From positions 1 to 64,000 of IMG/VR virus record IMGVR_UViG_3300015607_002134: a stretch of DNA of 64,000 bases; one strand, 5' to 3'. Made by a program: the position numbers and the translations under genes. Shown here piece by piece: positions 16,897 to 52,713 of this stretch. Source of the stretch: an uncultured virus (IMG/VR IMGVR_UViG_3300015607_002134). Lineage: Duplodnaviria > Heunggongvirae > Uroviricota > Caudoviricetes. The notes below the pieces were generated by a model. That model searched no databases. It saw only the letters and a program-made list of their open reading frames with translations, and was not told the DNA's origin. Numbering within the stretch: the stretch's first letter is position 1; the number at the start of each line of letters is the position of its first letter.

Positions 16897-17445
16897 CTAT
16901 TTTTGTGATTTACTTGATAACTTCTTTATGTTATCCATCATATCTTTTTCTATATTTACCATTTTTTTATCTAAGGCTGTTTTGGCATCTGATATCTCTT
17001 TTGATAGAGAAGCTATTTCTGCTGTTTTTGTGGATATTCTATTAGATATATCTGTTATTTTAGCATTTACAGCCTGTTTTGTGCTATCATCCTTTGATAG
17101 TTTTAATTCTTGCGAGAAATCATCTTTTTTTAGTTTGTCTAATGTTATGTCTTTTTGTATATTATTTATTTTTCTACTCAAAGAAGCAACATGTAAGTAC
17201 TCAACTAAAAAGGGATTTTTATTCTCTTTACCTACTATATTATCTATTTGACTTTTAATATCTTCATCAGTTTTAGCTTTAAGATAAAGATTGTCTATTA
17301 AAGGCTTTTTTTGTTTATATTCTTTAATATTCTTTTCTAAATCACCAAACTGTTCCTTTGATGCCTTTATATCTGGTTCGTCTGTAACTTGTACATCAAA
17401 CTCTGCTTCTTCTAAGAAGACTTTGTAATATTTAAGATGTCTCAT
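16897..17445 (-). CDS. Coiled-coil protein with N-terminal FLEE motif
   Basis: MRHLKYYKVFLEE start; heptad-rich C-terminal half. Confidence 0.6.
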   Translation of the reverse strand: MRHLKYYKVFLEEAEFDVQVTDEPDIKASKEQFGDLEKNIKEYKQKKPLIDNLYLKAKTDEDIKSQIDNIVGKENKNPFLVEYLHVASLSRKINNIQKDITLDKLKKDDFSQELKLSKDDSTKQAVNAKITDISNRISTKTAEIASLSKEISDAKTALDKKMVNIEKDMMDNIKKLSSKSQK

Positions 17446-21921: not shown

Positions 21922-22206
21922 ATGGAACAAGAATTAAAGACAGTTTGTAAAAATCCTTGGTGTAAATCAACTTTTTTCTATAAAGAGGCTGATATGATAC
22001 CAATAGAAACTGACAAACGAATGTCAAACTTAGACAATGTTTTAGGTGAGATTCCTATGATGCCACCTCCAGTTTGTCCAAAATGTAAAAGTTTTGACAC
22101 TGAATTAAGTGGTGGTGTTAATTGGAAAACAAAAGATTATGAAGGCCCAAGGTTTGATGGTGTTCCACATGAATTTAGATATAAAGTTACAAACTATAGA
22201 TTATGA
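21922..22206 (+). CDS. Small Zn-ribbon protein
   Basis: CKNPWC and CPKC; late motif at 21909-21917. Confidence 0.6.
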   Translation: MEQELKTVCKNPWCKSTFFYKEADMIPIETDKRMSNLDNVLGEIPMMPPPVCPKCKSFDTELSGGVNWKTKDYEGPRFDGVPHEFRYKVTNYRL

Positions 22207-34411: not shown

Positions 34412-34426
34412 TAAAAAAGAGTCAGA

Positions 34427-34906
34427 TTATTCTGACTCTTTTTCTTTTAGTATATTACTAATCAATTCATCTCTGTGTTCTTCCGTGTAGTCGAGAAATG
34501 TACCAAGAGAATCCTCCATGACATTTGCAGACCTTCTCTCTCCCTCTTTCTCATTTCTGTATTCTAACTTCCACTCTGAAATAGGGTTCATTTTGATTAC
34601 CCATAGGTATTTTGGATCACCGAGATCTTCTACTTTTGTTCCTTCTTTTAGAATGAATGAGTTTTCATATAGTGACTCATCTGGTGTGAAATATCCTAGT
34701 TTAGCATTATTGTATTTTTCGTAAACCGCCTCAAACATATCCTCGTATATATTATATGGAAAGATTGATTGAAGCCAATCTTTTAGTTCACTCATTCGGT
34801 CATTTGAGTATATCTTAGTATTTCTAGGATTTTCTGATTTAGACCAAAATGTATCACATTTGAAGTATTTAACCCCTTTTATTTCTACAAATAATACCGC
34901 TCTCAT
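34427..34906 (-). CDS. Hypothetical protein with C-terminal RDELISNIL motif
   Basis: Coupled to the upstream ORF; last gene of the minus-strand operon. Confidence 0.6.
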   Translation of the reverse strand: MRAVLFVEIKGVKYFKCDTFWSKSENPRNTKIYSNDRMSELKDWLQSIFPYNIYEDMFEAVYEKYNNAKLGYFTPDESLYENSFILKEGTKVEDLGDPKYLWVIKMNPISEWKLEYRNEKEGERRSANVMEDSLGTFLDYTEEHRDELISNILKEKESE

Positions 34907-35304
34907 TATTTCAACTCATTTAATTTATTAGTTACAATGTTCTTTATTTCCGTTTTATCTGTTTTTCCGGAAATAGCCTCACTAATTTTATTAAATTTTT
35001 CTCTCATTGTTTTGAAGTTCTTAATAGATTTCAGCTTATTTGAGTTAGTCGCTGGGTAATTCAATGATGTGTAGCTAGGTATTAAAAACAATTGGTGTTT
35101 GATAACACATTTTGTATTATTACCATAGTACGAAATCATATCATTAACATTGGTCACTGATACTTTGTCTCCATTGATTACGATGTAGTTATCACCTTCT
35201 ACTAATACTTTGTAGAATTCTTCCTTAGTTGTTTGGAATAAGTGATTTGATGTTTTTGTTAAGTAGTTAATTACTTCTGATTTGATTTGTTCTGTTGTTT
35301 TCAT
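34906..35304 (-). CDS. Hypothetical protein
   Basis: ORF in the minus-strand operon. Confidence 0.55.
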   Translation of the reverse strand: MKTTEQIKSEVINYLTKTSNHLFQTTKEEFYKVLVEGDNYIVINGDKVSVTNVNDMISYYGNNTKCVIKHQLFLIPSYTSLNYPATNSNKLKSIKNFKTMREKFNKISEAISGKTDKTEIKNIVTNKLNELK

Positions 35305-35314
35305 AATTGTAAGT

Positions 35315-35899
35315 TTATTTTTTGGTTGTTAATTTAATTATTTGTTTACCTCTTTGATTGATATTTTTCCATTTGATCTTGAAAGAGGTTGAATCAAGAC
35401 CACCGAACATTTTGGCATTTGAGTGTATCTCCGCTAATCCGACTAATAATAATGTTAAGTGATGTGGATTTTGGCAAAATTCTTCCACTCCTTCTGATTT
35501 TAACAGATGGATATCCATGTCATGTTTAATTAATTCGGATGCTATTTTATCATCGAAAATCTCACTGAATACTTTGTGTGATACTTCAGCATGACTTGGG
35601 AAATGTTTTTTTCCATCCTTATCCACCTCTACACAATATGGTTTCCCACAATCGTGTAATACTGTGTAATATTTGATAGTTTTATCAGATGGTAGATTGT
35701 TAATGAATAAATCTTTATTTTCATATAACCAATCTGGTAATTTCCAGTCGTATTTTAATGGTGTGTTATACTTTAAGTGATTTATTAAATCAAAAGTATA
35801 GTTTTTAACGGATATACCGTGCTCTAATACAGACTGACCTTGAGTCTGTTCACATGATTTCATGTCTTTAATTAGATTCTTGAATTTAATCTACTTCAT
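35315..35899 (-). CDS. HD-domain phosphohydrolase with in-frame TAG at codon 3
   Basis: VLEHG, LHDCGKP, HF..HAEVS; ATG AAG TAG ATT at 35899-35888, in frame, starting 1 nt after the upstream stop. Confidence 0.75.
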
Positions 35900-35900
35900 A

Positions 35901-36539
35901 TTATTTTATTTTTTCTTTAACTACTTTTAATAAATGTGGATATAACCACTTTTCGTCTTTTAATTCAACTTCATCTACTAATCCACCATCAATCATTTTT
36001 TTCAGTTTTCCTCTATCTATCTGAGATGTTGGATCAATTGAGTTGCTTTTCTTAATGATGTTTCCATTTTCTAATTGAATAAAAACTGTATTTTTTGGAA
36101 AAGTGACTGAATTATTTTGGTAATTATACCATTCATATTCTTCTTTTAATTTCCAAGCTTTCAATTCATATTTTTTTGGCTCTTCTTTTTCACTAAAAAT
36201 TCTTTCTATTTTACACTGTCTTTCATATTCTTTATCCAATCTATACAGTGGTATTATTCTGTATTCCCAATTTTGGGATTTATACATTTTGAGATATGCG
36301 CCCATTGCTGAATCTTTACTATTGTAGATTCTGTGGTTCCAGTGATTGTACCACTCTGTCCAATTTCCATTGTAGTTTGTTCTTGATTCAATAGCCCATC
36401 CATATGGTTTTATATCTGCTGATGTATGTTGTATCTTTACATCTAATGAATCATCGATGATATACTCTTTACTATCAACAGTTACGATATTTGGTTTGTT
36501 GAATATTTTTTTGATTTTATTTGCTATTTTCATTTCCAA
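35901..36539 (-). CDS. Hypothetical protein
   Basis: Overlaps the PTH2-like gene end; internal RQCKIERIF motif. Confidence 0.6.
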   Translation of the reverse strand: MEMKIANKIKKIFNKPNIVTVDSKEYIIDDSLDVKIQHTSADIKPYGWAIESRTNYNGNWTEWYNHWNHRIYNSKDSAMGAYLKMYKSQNWEYRIIPLYRLDKEYERQCKIERIFSEKEEPKKYELKAWKLKEEYEWYNYQNNSVTFPKNTVFIQLENGNIIKKSNSIDPTSQIDRGKLKKMIDGGLVDEVELKDEKWLYPHLLKVVKEKIK

Positions 36540-36885
36540 TCTCCTTATTTTTTAATAAAAGTGGTAAGCTTCTTAATTTTTTTCTAATTTCTGGTGTTCC
36601 GTAGAGGCAAAGAGATGTCATCTCATCTACGTCAGGTTCATAGAAGATTACACTTGGTGTTAATTCTTTAAATTTTTCGTAAAGTTTTTTTAACTCAAAC
36701 TCGTTTTTGACACCTAAGCAGATGATAGAGTTTGATTCCAGTTTCCATTTAGCAAATGTTTCTGGGAATTCAAATGCGAAGTCGGCGATTGAATGTGTTG
36801 ATTGTACCGCTTGGTACCCTGGTGATATATCCTCTCTTGTGATAATCACTAGTTTTGTTTCCTCGTTGTTAATCTAGTTTTTCAT
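36517..36885 (-). CDS. PTH2-like peptidyl-tRNA hydrolase with in-frame TAG at codon 4
   Basis: KLVIITREDISPGYQAVQSTHS, W, IICLGV, FYEPD...TSLCL, LRSLPLL; ATG AAA AAC TAG ATT at 36885-36871. Confidence 0.75.
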
Positions 36886-36913
36886 ATTGTTTGTTTTTTT
36901 GTTTAAAATAAAA

Positions 36914-37009
36914 AATCTCCTTATCTGTGACCTGTCAATACTTGACAATTAACTCATTAAACTTAATGCATCGAGGCAAATAAGTTGAGTAGTCCCAGTT
37001 AAGGAGATT
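36914..37009 (-). ncRNA. Structured cis-regulatory leader RNA (three-way junction then U-tract)
   Basis: AATCTCCTTA/TAAGGAGATT, CTG/CAG and GACT/GGTC outer stem; ACTCA/TGAGT and ACTTA/TAAGT arm; TGTCAA/TTGACA arm; then TTTTATTTT. Confidence 0.6.
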
Positions 37010-37045
37010 CCGAATTTTATATGTGTTAATCTACATCATTTTCAT
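36935..37045 (-). CDS. Leader peptide MKMM-amber with in-frame continuation to TGA
   Basis: ATG AAA ATG ATG TAG ATT AAC, then open to TGA at 36937-36935. Confidence 0.55.
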
Positions 37046-37048
37046 TTT

Positions 37049-37089
37049 ATTATAGTACAAATATATATTAAAAGTTTTATACCTCCAAA
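37049..37089 (-). promoter_or_regulatory. Stacked promoter motifs for the amber operon
   Basis: TTTG-N20-TATATTTG (37089-37058), TAATATATA (37070-37062) and AAACTT-N17-TATAAT (37077-37049). Confidence 0.6.
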
Positions 37090-37100
37090 TTTTTTCAAAA

Positions 37101-37478
37101 TTATTTTATGATAGCATAAACTTCATAGTCTGTTATTTGGAATTTTATTTCCATCATCTCTTGATAATTTTCTGGATCAGAAAAAAATTCAACAGTTAGC
37201 TCAAAACTTGTATTTGTTAATTCGGGTATGTACTCATATATCTGTTCTAGTAAATTTCTCTCTACTGCTTCTGCTGAAACTCTTGTTTGATGTAATAGTT
37301 TGGGTAAATCGCCACCAAAGTTCGGTTCACCCAATACTTCACCTTTATTTGTGAATATTATCATCTCATACTTCTGTACAATTACCCTAACTAAATCATC
37401 TTCAATTAACTTCTTATCGGTGAATCTTGGATGACCTTTATATCCTATGTAAAAATCTATGAAATTAAAATTTGCCAT
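37101..37478 (-). CDS. Baseplate wedge subunit (gp25/GpW-like)
   Basis: IIFTNKGEVLGEPNFGGDLPKLL, IYEYIP. Confidence 0.8.
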   Translation of the reverse strand: MANFNFIDFYIGYKGHPRFTDKKLIEDDLVRVIVQKYEMIIFTNKGEVLGEPNFGGDLPKLLHQTRVSAEAVERNLLEQIYEYIPELTNTSFELTVEFFSDPENYQEMMEIKFQITDYEVYAIIK

Positions 37479-37508: not shown

Positions 37509-38105
37509 ATGAAATACATCCGAAAATATAATGAATCTGAGAGTGCATATGGTGCCAAAGAGAAGATTGAGAAGTGGAGAAATGATATAATAAAGAAGTT
37601 GGTATATTATCATAATAACTTTAGTGATAATTTATCAAAGGAAATAGAACAATTCACTTGGGAATATGAAGACACAAATACTTATACTGAAGTTGATGGT
37701 GTGATTGATGCGGAATGTGTTTCTATGTTAATTGATAATGTTCTTCAAGACTGGGTTAGAAACCAGGATAAGTTTTTGGAGTTATATTATGATATTCATC
37801 AAACTTTGAAGAACAGGGGAGAAGACTTAACTGAACAATTGAAAGAGATATTTGCTGATTATTTAGATGATGACTCTTTAAGAGTTCGTATTTATAGAAC
37901 TGCTGATAGCTCAGACGATAGATATGAAATTAGTATAAGTGGTGAAGATAATATGTTCAATAAGATTTCATTCAATGAAATTGTGAATAGAACAAAAGAT
38001 ATTGGGTTATCTAAGTTTAGATATTCTGGAGATGACAGTAGTATTTCTTTCTCTTTTTGGAAAGAAGTGGATGATAACTACGATGATGTTGAAATTGATG
38101 ATTAA
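37509..38105 (+). CDS. Acidic hypothetical protein (start moved to 37509)
   Basis: MKYIRKYNESE directly after the late motif at 37495-37503. Confidence 0.6.
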   Translation: MKYIRKYNESESAYGAKEKIEKWRNDIIKKLVYYHNNFSDNLSKEIEQFTWEYEDTNTYTEVDGVIDAECVSMLIDNVLQDWVRNQDKFLELYYDIHQTLKNRGEDLTEQLKEIFADYLDDDSLRVRIYRTADSSDDRYEISISGEDNMFNKISFNEIVNRTKDIGLSKFRYSGDDSSISFSFWKEVDDNYDDVEIDD

Positions 38106-39067
38106 ATCAATATATCCCTAAGTTTACCAATTATTGTCATTCCCAATACTATTGGGTCTGTATTTGTTTCCAATTTAGAGGTGTAGTCAGCAATAACATA
38201 ATTACATTCAAATAACTTGTCTATATTTTTACCTTCTGATATAGACCAATCTATAAATGGCTTACCTAATATAGAGACCATTGAATCTATCTTCTCGGCT
38301 CCAAAATTACTCATTAGGAAGTGGTATGTTTTTTCATAGTCAACATCTTTATCATATAATAGACTATATAATTCCAATTTAAGTTTATTGGATACATTAG
38401 AAGATGATTGTATAAGTCCACCAGTGTTCATGAAATTCTGGATACTTACCATTATTCCTCTGAAGTCGGGAAACTTTTTATTTATAATCGATACCAAGTC
38501 TTCTTTAGATATTGTTACTTCTTCTTTAGGTAGAATTGTATTTTGTATTCTTTTATACATCTCTGTCTTCAAGAATTTTTCTTCTTCAACATCTTGACAA
38601 TCAAAGTTAACTTCTATGAATCTTGATCTAATTCCTGGTGTTATCTTATTTAAGTGATTGGTTGTTAATATGAACCTAACATTCTTGTGATACTTTTCAA
38701 TAAATGCTTTGAACGCATCTTGAAATTGTGTAGATACTCTCTCGAACTCATCTAAAAATACATATTTAATATCCGAATCTGAATCCATCATCGGAGTCAC
38801 TTTACAGAAATTTTCTATCTCTGATCTTAAGACATCAATAGATGTAAACAATGAACTATTCAATTCTAAAAATGCTTTGTCCTTTGTGTACTTACCGATT
38901 AATACTCTCGCAAGAGTCGTTTTTCCTGTTCCATAGTGACCATGAAATATGTAGTTACTATTTACACCTTTTTCAAATTGTTTTTTTATTCTAGGTAATA
39001 GGATTGTATCGTCTATTGATTTTGGACGCCATTTTTCCCATAAAAGAAGTTCGTTTGTATTTGACAT
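38102..39067 (-). CDS. Clamp loader AAA+ subunit (T4 gp44/RFC-like)
   Basis: LWEKWRPK, GHYGTGKTT, FLDEFE, IRSRF, FPDFR. Confidence 0.92.
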   Translation of the reverse strand: MSNTNELLLWEKWRPKSIDDTILLPRIKKQFEKGVNSNYIFHGHYGTGKTTLARVLIGKYTKDKAFLELNSSLFTSIDVLRSEIENFCKVTPMMDSDSDIKYVFLDEFERVSTQFQDAFKAFIEKYHKNVRFILTTNHLNKITPGIRSRFIEVNFDCQDVEEEKFLKTEMYKRIQNTILPKEEVTISKEDLVSIINKKFPDFRGIMVSIQNFMNTGGLIQSSSNVSNKLKLELYSLLYDKDVDYEKTYHFLMSNFGAEKIDSMVSILGKPFIDWSISEGKNIDKLFECNYVIADYTSKLETNTDPIVLGMTIIGKLRDILI

Positions 39068-52631: not shown

Positions 52632-52713
52632 GAAGTCTCACTGAGATATCGAAAAAAGTCCCTTCATTGGGACTTTTTTCATTTTAAATAGTTTGTAAAT
52701 TAATATATACACT

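Follow-up and report, generated by a model that had tools for sequence, protein, structure and literature searches.

A candidate suppressor-tRNA-gated operon for tRNA 3′-end salvage enzymes in an uncultured phage

How is a gene expressed when a stop codon stands in its frame within a few codons of the start? This question is raised by a locus of the uncultured virus IMGVR_UViG_3300015607_002134 (Caudoviricetes), of which the first 64,000 nucleotides were analysed (hereafter the window). Between positions 35,315 and 37,089, on the minus strand, lie a short leader, a gene for a protein of the peptidyl-tRNA hydrolase Pth2 type (PTH2-like) and a gene for an HD-domain protein. The original prediction, made from the letters of the sequence, held that all three open with ATG, one to three further codons and TAG-ATT, at 37045, 36885 and 35899, and each start is as it described. 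The leader open reading frame (ORF; 36935..37045) reads ATG (37045-37043) AAA ATG ATG TAG (37033-37031) ATT AAC ACA TAT and continues to a TGA at 36937-36935. The PTH2-like gene (36517..36885) reads ATG AAA AAC TAG (36876-36874) ATT AAC and stops at 36519-36517, and the HD-domain gene (35315..35899) reads ATG AAG TAG (35893-35891) ATT AAA. The frame stays open behind each early TAG, for 31 codons in the leader, 118 in the PTH2-like gene and 191 in the HD gene, and the HD ATG lies 1 nt past the TAA of the preceding ORF, both as had been stated.

The probable answer is an operon for tRNA 3′-end salvage enzymes that is gated by a suppressor tRNA. Translation of the PTH2-like and HD proteins would start at a normal ATG and meet UAG after one to three codons. 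A tRNA with the anticodon CUA, tRNA(CUA), would insert an amino acid at this codon to give the complete protein; otherwise a peptide of two to four residues would be released. Most related phages encode the putative gating tRNA beside both genes, and in the window lineage this role would fall to what is probably an odd, relocated tRNA. At the head of the operon, a host-type promoter would drive the leader ORF with its UAG at codon 3-5. When the leader UAG is read, the ribosome would enter the 5′ arm of a hairpin, parking on a Pro-Pro-stop sequence in relatives. With the ribosome on the 5′ arm, the hairpin could not form and transcription would proceed into the operon. When the leader UAG terminates, the hairpin would form and transcription would stop at a U-tract.

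It had been proposed that the enzymes are made only when UAG termination fails or a suppressor tRNA is present. This gating finds its support in comparison, because the TAG is conserved across deep divergence, no alternative start is present and, in most relatives, a tRNA(CUA) is tightly linked to the genes. Together with the folds of the two proteins and the geometry of leader, hairpin and U-tract, these are the observations from which read-through may be inferred.

Conservation of the early amber codon

The window is AT-rich (G+C content 31%) and sits on a contig of 74.8 kb with a CheckV completeness of 13%. Its closest records are LR756502.1 (642 kb, hereafter W01) and LR745206.1 (635 kb, W02), two uncultured huge phages at approximately 72% nucleotide identity, which serve as the two complete relatives of the window lineage. 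The comparison drew on 53 IMG/VR loci with HD homologues (by eye, 41 distinct ones), 20 metagenome sequences closely related to the PTH2-like gene, the two huge-phage records and seven cultured jumbo phages identified by tblastn: XacN1, RsoM2USA, GAP32, fHe-Yen9-03, pT24, ME3 and Arash.

Across relatives at 40-100% protein identity, both gene families keep the in-frame TAG, nearly always at codons 3-6, and the pattern recurs in about 60 distinct loci and the seven cultured phages. ATG, one to four codons and TAG stand directly before the conserved N-terminus in about 50 of the 53 HD loci, whose GC content is very different, and all seven metagenome loci of the window lineage that hold the HD gene read ATG-x-TAG-ATT. 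The PTH2-like gene has the same early TAG and either adjoins the HD gene, on one side or the other, or forms a fusion with it. For an enrichment test, 430 kb of related loci and the contig were scanned for ORFs of at least 80 codons with an ATG no more than five codons before the upstream in-frame stop. Such an ATG preceded TAG in 107 of 322 cases, TAA in 22 of 412 and TGA in 28 of 418, and nearly all of the TAG cases belong to the PTH2-like or HD families. The whole 635 kb of W02 holds 31 places at which an ATG up to five codons before a TAG opens an ORF of at least 60 codons; read by eye, the clean pattern occurs only in the PTH2-like and HD genes. The 8-mer TAGATTAA occurs 13 times in the window against 11.6 expected; as this is no enrichment, its interpretation as a DNA motif or promoter was rejected. 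It is the early-TAG arrangement, not the 8-mer, that exceeds chance.

All seven cultured phages carry the early TAG in the PTH2-like gene or fusion, translated as MK(TAG)TIKAM in XacN1, KML(TAG)ISDK in RsoM2USA, MAQ(TAG)NEK in GAP32, MSH(TAG)IDK in fHe-Yen9-03, IMK(TAG)ITKN in pT24, LMT(TAG)IHEN in ME3 and IML(TAG)NKHW in Arash. The homologues include XacN1 ORF364, RsoM2USA_91 with the region upstream of RsoM2USA_92, and GAP32_396-399. The HD gene of GAP32 and fHe-Yen9-03 opens with a plain ATG followed by IYPNTFEEL, like the IYPQNFDEL found after the TAG in locus L051; here the TAG stands at codon 47, past the first conserved His.

Annotation of these genes is affected in several ways. In the GAP32 group (L122:2983-3549; fHe-Yen9-03 L127:2983-3549), the HD gene is annotated as two to three small ORFs where there is one gene with a single TAG. 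In RsoM2USA, the ATG AAA TCG TAG before the HD gene (RsoM2USA_92, L121:2413-2973) also closes the annotated gene upstream, as its last four codons, so that read-through could give a fusion protein as well. Directly upstream of a PTH2-HD fusion in L019:1687-2655, L029 and L030:1682-2620, an ORF of 311-322 codons itself opens with ATG..TAG ATT AAG. By eye its tail is endonuclease-like, and the amber start may have been copied by a homing-endonuclease cassette.

The sequence around the amber codon is less constant than the codon itself. The original prediction had taken UAG-AUU-AA as the defining signal shared by the three starts. This proved to be a habit of the lineage: the next codon is ATT in only 29 of 77 distinct cases, so ATT was ruled out as the defining signal by the family survey. 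The other codons found there are AAC, GTT, CTT, ATC, ATA, GTA, AAT, ACA, ACC, ACG, AAA, GGC, CTA and ATG. The proposed check of TAG-ATT in homologues therefore succeeded for the TAG and failed for ATT beyond the lineage, and the conserved element is the TAG, not its ATT-AA context. A short ribosome hop over TAG-ATT to a matching codon was also considered at seven sites by eye and set aside, as the flanking codons match only in some.

With regard to the following base, 73 gated TAGs are followed by A in 54 cases, G in 14, C in 5 and T in none, and ordinary TAG stops of the same loci by T in 22, A in 23, C in 15 and G in 14, counts that are not phylogenetically independent. A purine after UAG favours suppression in Escherichia coli. 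Leucine codons stand before the gated TAG in 31 of 73 cases (CTA in 15); together with the lack of a following T, this may make termination at the TAG weaker.

TAG is not generally recoded in these phages. Coding of the contig under translation table 11 is dense, and its 106 ORFs of at least 100 codons end in TAA (70), TAG (20) or TGA (16). ORFs split by TAG number four in the contig (TAA 4, TGA 5), 13 in W02 (TAA 98, TGA 24) and eight in 26 loci with a tRNA(CUA) (TAA 18, TGA 28). The in-frame TAGs at sense positions in many genes that mark code-15 phages were thus not seen, and the assertion that the genome is not globally recoded is borne out by the TAG ends of long ORFs and by the lack of enrichment of TAG-split ORFs. 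The eight ordinary TAG stops cited in support of it exist, seven on the plus strand and that at 16897 on the minus strand, and none is followed by ATT; one other gene-end TAG, at 22197, does have ATT next.

Assembly error had been named as a way in which the early TAGs could prove spurious. This is excluded, since independent assemblies carry the stretch without a difference. Contig record 28 of run X8 (2015) covers 35827-37150 and contig records 3 and 7 of run X10 (2021) cover 35736-35942 and 36572-37076, each with 0 differences, and the runs of 2015, 2019 and 2021 are sequence-identical.

The encoded proteins and the linked tRNA(CUA)

In 36 of 37 PTH2-like genes, the stretch from the TAG to the first β-strand is free of ATG, GTG and TTG, and for many of them the first canonical start is 14-62 codons in. 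The GTG at 36849 in the window lies inside the first strand (model residues 7-13) and the Pfam match begins at residue 7, in agreement with the claim that this start would clip the N-terminal strand. Residues encoded behind the TAG fall in ordered structure in the AlphaFold2 (AF2) models of both proteins.

Both profile and predicted fold place the PTH2-like protein, though diverged, in the Pth2 family. It scores 21.8 bits against PF01981 (cutoff 23), and 21 of 26 family members match this domain, the best at E 4.1e-11. The family profile hits solved Pth2 chains, 2zv3 at E 1.7e-9 and four more at E 1.2e-5 or better. The AF2 model has a pLDDT of 90.9, and Foldseek ranks 1-14 are all proteins of the Pth2/Bit1 family (E 7.6e-7 to 6.5e-4, TM 0.61-0.77), with TM 0.71-0.77 to archaeal Pth2 and human Bit1. 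The protein thus shares with known Pth2 enzymes (PF01981; 2zv3, 1wn2, 3erj and human Bit1 1q7s) the fold, sequence homology and the R-x-D-L and Q..H motifs. The catalytic residues of Pth2 are Lys, Asp and Thr. The invariant residues of the phage family are R13, D15, Q24, H27, E79, P80 and T86, of which T86 aligns with a Thr of 2zv3.

In the HD protein, H79, D80, H100, D124 and H128 are invariant among 33 sequences, and H24 and H96 nearly so. The score against the Pfam HD domain (PF01966) is 15.2 bits, below the cutoff of 22, and nine of the 33 members match it at E 0.1 or better (best 4.9e-4). The AF2 model has a pLDDT of 97.3, with a helix at residues 3-12 that runs before and through Met10 at a pLDDT of about 95. 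Its top structural match in VIA-align is to the C-terminal residues 250-448 of a class II CC-adding enzyme (3wfo/3wfr), at Z 13.3-14.6, followed at Z 8-10.7 by PhnZ, PgpH-HD, PPX, YfbR and others; the tool itself notes that helical folds may reach such Z values by chance. The identification of 3wfo-3wfs as a class II CC-adding enzyme solved with tRNA rests on Table 1 of PMC4810234 and on a preprint. Through the Pth2 fold and the CC-adding enzyme match, both proteins point to the 3′ end of tRNA. Their predicted activities would be hydrolysis of peptidyl- or acyl-tRNA esters and healing of the tRNA 3′ end.

The tRNA that would decode the UAG is encoded next to these genes in most relatives. Aragorn places a same-strand tRNA(CUA) within 3 kb of the module in 30 of the 41 distinct IMG/VR loci, often as two copies of different build. 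Carrier genomes hold 34-61 tRNAs over 450-640 kb; with one or two CUA tRNAs among them, a 6.5-kb stretch picked at random would, by a rough estimate, include these only a few percent of the time. A tRNA(CUA) near the module is annotated for GAP32, fHe-Yen9-03, pT24 and ME3. In Arash (L130:3985-4059), the gene annotated as tRNA-Phe has an anticodon that aragorn reads as CTA (CUA); the adjacent ‘peptidyl-tRNA hydrolase’ coding sequence is annotated as 153 nt only.

Two tRNA(CUA) types stand side by side in L011, L012, L017, L020, L022, L045 and L055 (e.g., L017:4050-4204). One type has G1:C72 with A73, the other U1:A72 or C1:G72 with G73. By tRNA identity rules, the type with U1:A72 and G73 is Gln-like, and the amino acid placed at UAG may differ between the paired types. 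A phage transfer-messenger RNA (tmRNA; Rfam beta_tmRNA, 130.9 bits) lies at L048:321-646, approximately 1.1 kb upstream of the tRNA(CUA), PTH2-like and HD genes, and also in L050. In L048 the four together look like a translation-rescue cluster.

The window lineage departs from this arrangement: in its 20 close relatives, no tRNA(CUA) adjoins the module. At the default threshold of aragorn, W02 encodes 59 tRNAs, none with a CUA anticodon. At a relaxed threshold, an odd tRNA(CUA) candidate appears at W02:507340-507419, with 59% G+C, the anticodon loop UUCUAAC and stems of 8 bp (acceptor), 6 bp (D) and 4 bp (T). Its homologue in W01 is 75% identical. Between the two, compensatory changes have occurred in the acceptor stem (G3:C to A3:U) and at four positions of the D stem, the anticodon and T arms are unchanged, and there is a 1-nt indel that would not be tolerable in a coding region. 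A TAnnTTTG motif stands 10 nt upstream of it. Its neighbours in W02 are a DNA methylase and uncharacterised genes, with no synthetase and no elongation factor among them, and a 15-mer from it gave 20 matches in IMG/VR, all judged by eye to be chance. The candidate resembles tRNA-Sec or the ‘allo-tRNAs’. It is probably a real, non-canonical suppressor tRNA that has moved away from the module in this lineage. Two other tRNA-like elements of W02, at 407364-407437 and 419836-419923 (L107 and L108), lie in tRNA clusters and have anticodon loops of 8 nt (‘gtag’) or 6 nt (‘gt’) according to aragorn.

The leader, its hairpin and the remainder of the unit

Transcription of the module would begin at a promoter-like element at 37058..37089 on the minus strand, composed of TTTG (37089-37086), a 20-nt spacer and TATATTTG (37065-37058). 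It fits the Bacteroidetes-type -33/-7 consensus, TTTG...TAnnTTTG. The sequence TATATTTGT occurs eight times in the contig. The promoter-like motif upstream of the leader is kept in relatives and also precedes the odd tRNA(CUA) of W02 and W01. A motif like TTAATATATAC, distinct from the host-type TATATTTG motif, is found 3-10 nt before many ATG starts, e.g., ahead of ORFs that start near 52711 (+), 61737 (-), 70662 (+) and 42317 (-). It may be a phage-specific promoter giving very short leaders.

All 20 distinct leaders of the lineage keep the ORF and a UAG at codon 3 or 5. In 19 of the 20, the leader takes the form M-x-UAG-I-x-T-Y-(5-8 codons)-Pro-Pro-stop, in which the second Pro codon is CCT, CCA, CCG or CCC and the stop is TAA in 18 and TGA in one. 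A Pro-Pro-stop sequence slows termination. A long imperfect hairpin follows in the window at 36916..37007 on the minus strand, closed by UCUCCUUA/UAAGGAGA. The U-tract TTTTTTATTTT (36905..36915) comes directly after its 3′ arm, and about 20 A-rich bases separate the U-tract from the ATG of the PTH2-like gene.

The hairpin is more stable than expected from its composition. The 146-nt stretch of the window folds at -39.3 kcal/mol (z -4.74, 0 of 200 shuffles as stable), and dinucleotide shuffling of three sequences gave z values of -4.2 to -4.7. Across the lineage, hairpins have energies of -24 to -35 kcal/mol and z of -3 to -8.4 in 17 of 20 folded leaders; in the remaining three, the U-tract was not located (two) or was mis-assigned (one). 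In these 17 sequences, the 5′ arm starts 23-32 nt past the UAG, the leader stop falls 5-8 nt inside that arm, and 0-2 nt separate the 3′ arm from UUUUUAUUUU. Hairpin and U-tract thus have the geometry of an intrinsic terminator, and it may be supposed that the hairpin terminates transcription.

A simple terminator scan, which allows loops of 3-8 nt only, missed the leader hairpin and found only that at 34414-34443. RNAalifold on a MAFFT alignment of the leaders recovered the inner pairs only, because the 3′ arms were misaligned, and each leader was therefore folded singly. The idea that the hairpin is a degenerate tRNA or a known RNA family was rejected: Rfam gave no match in 35200-37300 at E up to 10, and aragorn made no call even with relaxed settings or introns allowed. 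A pattern search for the leader in IMG/VR returned at least 119 matches; 80 were examined, six passed the first filter and none was a relative.

The leader fits a translation-coupled attenuator with UAG as the sensing codon, as judged from its sequence. What the original prediction had called the leader is a conserved leader peptide ending in Pro-Pro-stop on a terminator-like hairpin in 19 of 20 members, and the part that does not carry over is the window copy, which is out of frame with that stop. A relative at about 90% in run X13 has an in-frame +3 insertion in a window-type leader. A more elaborate proposal, held tentatively and at somewhat less than even odds, is that of a natural three-lock amber-suppression sensor. 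Its first lock would be the UAG leader attenuator, with the ribosome parked on the terminator by Pro-Pro-stop, and the second and third locks the early UAGs of the two tRNA 3′-end enzymes; in this lineage the non-canonical tRNA(CUA), with its 8-bp acceptor and 4-bp T stems, would read all three.

Only in this lineage does an ORF of 212 codons (35901..36539, minus strand), with no early TAG and no Pfam match, intervene between the PTH2-like gene and the HD gene; a homologue of 33% identity is present in L002. Two further same-strand ORFs of 132 and 159 codons (34427..35304, minus strand) probably complete the transcription unit; the first has no Pfam match and has homologues in L001 and L002. 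The palindromic terminator-like hairpin at 34414..34443, detected by the terminator scan, lies at the end of the unit. The neighbour genes of the module include one for a gp25-like baseplate protein (Pfam), and an ORF at 38102-39067 was judged by eye to be clamp-loader subunit-like.

Competing readings, known systems and implications

Several observations weigh against a suppressor-gated operon. No tRNA was found in the window or its 74.8-kb contig, nor in the 103-kb twin contig, both of them fragments of genomes, and 11 of the 41 loci have no tRNA(CUA) within 3 kb. The scan for a CUA-anticodon tRNA that had been called for is therefore negative for the window and its contigs and positive for 30 of 41 related loci and, as a candidate, for W02 and W01. 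That candidate falls below the Rfam cut-off (28.5 bits, E 0.002, against 47 for the tRNA-Sec model), is found by aragorn only at relaxed settings in W02 and not in W01, and is known from two relatives only. In the window lineage ATT always follows the TAG, which also fits initiation at AUU. The HD genes of ME3 and Arash have no TAG, and Met10 of the HD protein is invariant, so that a slightly shorter protein could be made without read-through. The PTH2-like protein is highly diverged from archaeal and eukaryotic Pth2. When it is aligned to Methanocaldococcus jannaschii Pth2 (2zv3), E79 stands at the Asp of RDAG and the GKGK lysines are absent, which makes peptidyl-tRNA hydrolase activity uncertain. 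The window leader is out of frame with the Pro-Pro-stop of 19 of 20 relatives and ends at a TGA inside the hairpin, because its spacer is shorter than in all 19 in the alignment; read to this TGA, it would still open the hairpin. No RNA run carrying the stretch was found.

The AUU that follows the TAG is the starting point of the most serious alternative, which is nevertheless unlikely: a start-stop mini-ORF would merely deliver ribosomes that re-initiate on the adjacent AUU, and no suppressor tRNA would be needed. ATT follows the TAG at all three sites of the window, at every listed PTH2-like start of the lineage and in the HD gene of the seven metagenome loci, and 28 of 41 PTH2-like genes have ATT, ATC, ATA or ATG, a canonical or near-cognate start, as the next codon. 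However, a non-initiating codon (AAC, GTT, CTT, GGC, ACA, ACC or AAA) follows in 13 of 41 PTH2-like and 25 of 36 HD genes. Re-initiation also cannot explain the TAG at codon 47 in GAP32 and fHe-Yen9-03, and it leaves unexplained the linkage to tRNA(CUA) in 30 of 41 loci and the fact that the stop is always TAG, never TAA or TGA. Rather less probable again is that ATG-x-UAG forms regulatory minigenes that report demand for peptidyl-tRNA hydrolase by drop-off, with the enzymes starting at the GTG at 36849 and the ATG at 35863. It is established that minigenes are toxic in Pth-deficient cells (lambda bar), one of the gated genes is PTH2-like, the window does have a downstream GTG and ATG, and Met10 of the HD protein is invariant. 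Against this stand the lack of a canonical start before the first strand in 36 of 37 PTH2-like genes, where such a start is often 14-62 codons in, and the residues between the TAG and the downstream starts, which are conserved as protein, are modelled as ordered and come after a plain ATG in GAP32.

A third explanation, that TAG is a sense codon throughout (code 15) and the genes are ordinary recoded ones, is very improbable. Phages with reassigned TAG and suppressor tRNAs are known (10.1101/2021.08.26.457843), and the closest relatives of the window are huge phages with many tRNAs. The dense coding under table 11, the 20 of 106 long ORFs that end in TAG and the lack of enrichment of TAG-split ORFs contradict it, as does the fact that the TAGs of the two gene families are confined to one position. 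That the pattern stems from chance, assembly error or decaying pseudogenes has next to no probability. The ordinary frequency of TAGATTAA in the window would suit chance, but the identical runs of 2015, 2019 and 2021, the conservation in about 60 distinct loci and seven cultured phages, and the high-confidence folds of both proteins have already refuted it.

The dependence of phage gene expression on a suppressor tRNA, as the gated operon would require, is already known as a kind. Code-15 phages (crAss-like, Lak and others, with TAG as Gln) likewise need a phage tRNA(CUA) for genes with in-frame TAGs, and the preprint cited above proposes suppressor-dependent timing of lysis genes in recoded phages (10.1101/2021.08.26.457843). 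The phages discussed here differ in that the code is standard, TAG still ends genes, and a single TAG at codons 3-6 is found only in two families and a leader; the products of the gated genes are tRNA-end enzymes and not lysis or structural proteins.

The suppressor tRNAs described for XacN1, RsoM2USA and the GAP32 group are the same tRNA(CUA) genes of the same phages as here. XacN1 was reported to have two CUA tRNAs, for which reading through 18 TAG stops gave no target, and the targets are stated to be unidentifiable (PMC5852040). The available sections of the RsoM2USA paper name no target (PMC8504454), and those of a 2026 survey of jumbo phages connect suppressor tRNAs with recoding only (PMC13037316). 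A search at gene ends could not see the early TAGs, which stand ahead of annotated starts or split the annotated ORFs. Full-text searches (supplements unopened) found no paper on early amber codons in these genes or on a natural amber-sensing attenuator, which agrees with the original statement that the arrangement is undescribed.

In the leader attenuators of trp and his and in that of the pyrBI type, a translating ribosome physically prevents formation of the terminator hairpin. The phage leader resembles them in that a short ORF follows a promoter, its frame enters a terminator-like hairpin, and this hairpin and its U-tract precede the first gene. It differs in its predicted sensing codon, UAG in place of codons for an amino acid in short supply, and in the Pro-Pro-stop on the 5′ arm; no alternative antiterminator hairpin was identified in the leader. 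Gating of a few genes by a dedicated tRNA or termination-factor level through a single early rare or stop codon also has precedents in bldA, whose tRNA-Leu(UAA) gates TTA-containing genes of Streptomyces, and in prfB, which autoregulates through an early in-frame UGA. However, bldA reads a sense codon, and prfB uses a +1 frameshift and senses its own product, whereas neither gene here encodes a release factor, the frame is in phase and no frameshift site was seen. The design has an engineered parallel: in the ‘Uaa transcriptional switch’, a TAG in a leader peptide places downstream transcription under the control of amber suppression (PMC6412442). There too, translation of the leader past UAG is required for downstream transcription, but the switch works by masking of a Rho site in tna-type leaders, in contrast to the natural phage leader with its intrinsic-terminator geometry (PMC6412442).

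Two regulatory relationships fit a suppressor-gated operon and are graded alike. In a feed-forward scheme, more suppression would bring more aberrant read-through and short peptidyl-tRNA, and hence more need for salvage. In a scheme of negative feedback, the enzymes would act on the suppressor tRNA itself, holding its activity at a set point.

The gated operon would supply concrete, conserved targets for the orphan amber suppressor tRNAs of standard-code phages such as XacN1, RsoM2USA and the GAP32 group. It would be a case of natural gene control by a dedicated stop-codon-reading tRNA outside wholesale change of the code, and the leader may add a new sensing codon to leader-peptide attenuation, in a design previously only engineered. 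A direct test of the idea is possible, since some carriers of the module can be grown on laboratory hosts. Gene callers should allow an early in-frame TAG in the PTH2-like and HD families. If the three-lock sensor is true, the phage would gauge its own suppressor tRNA against host RF1 and match to it the capacity for peptidyl-tRNA hydrolysis and tRNA-end repair, and targets would at last be known for the suppressor tRNAs that standard-code jumbo phages carry.

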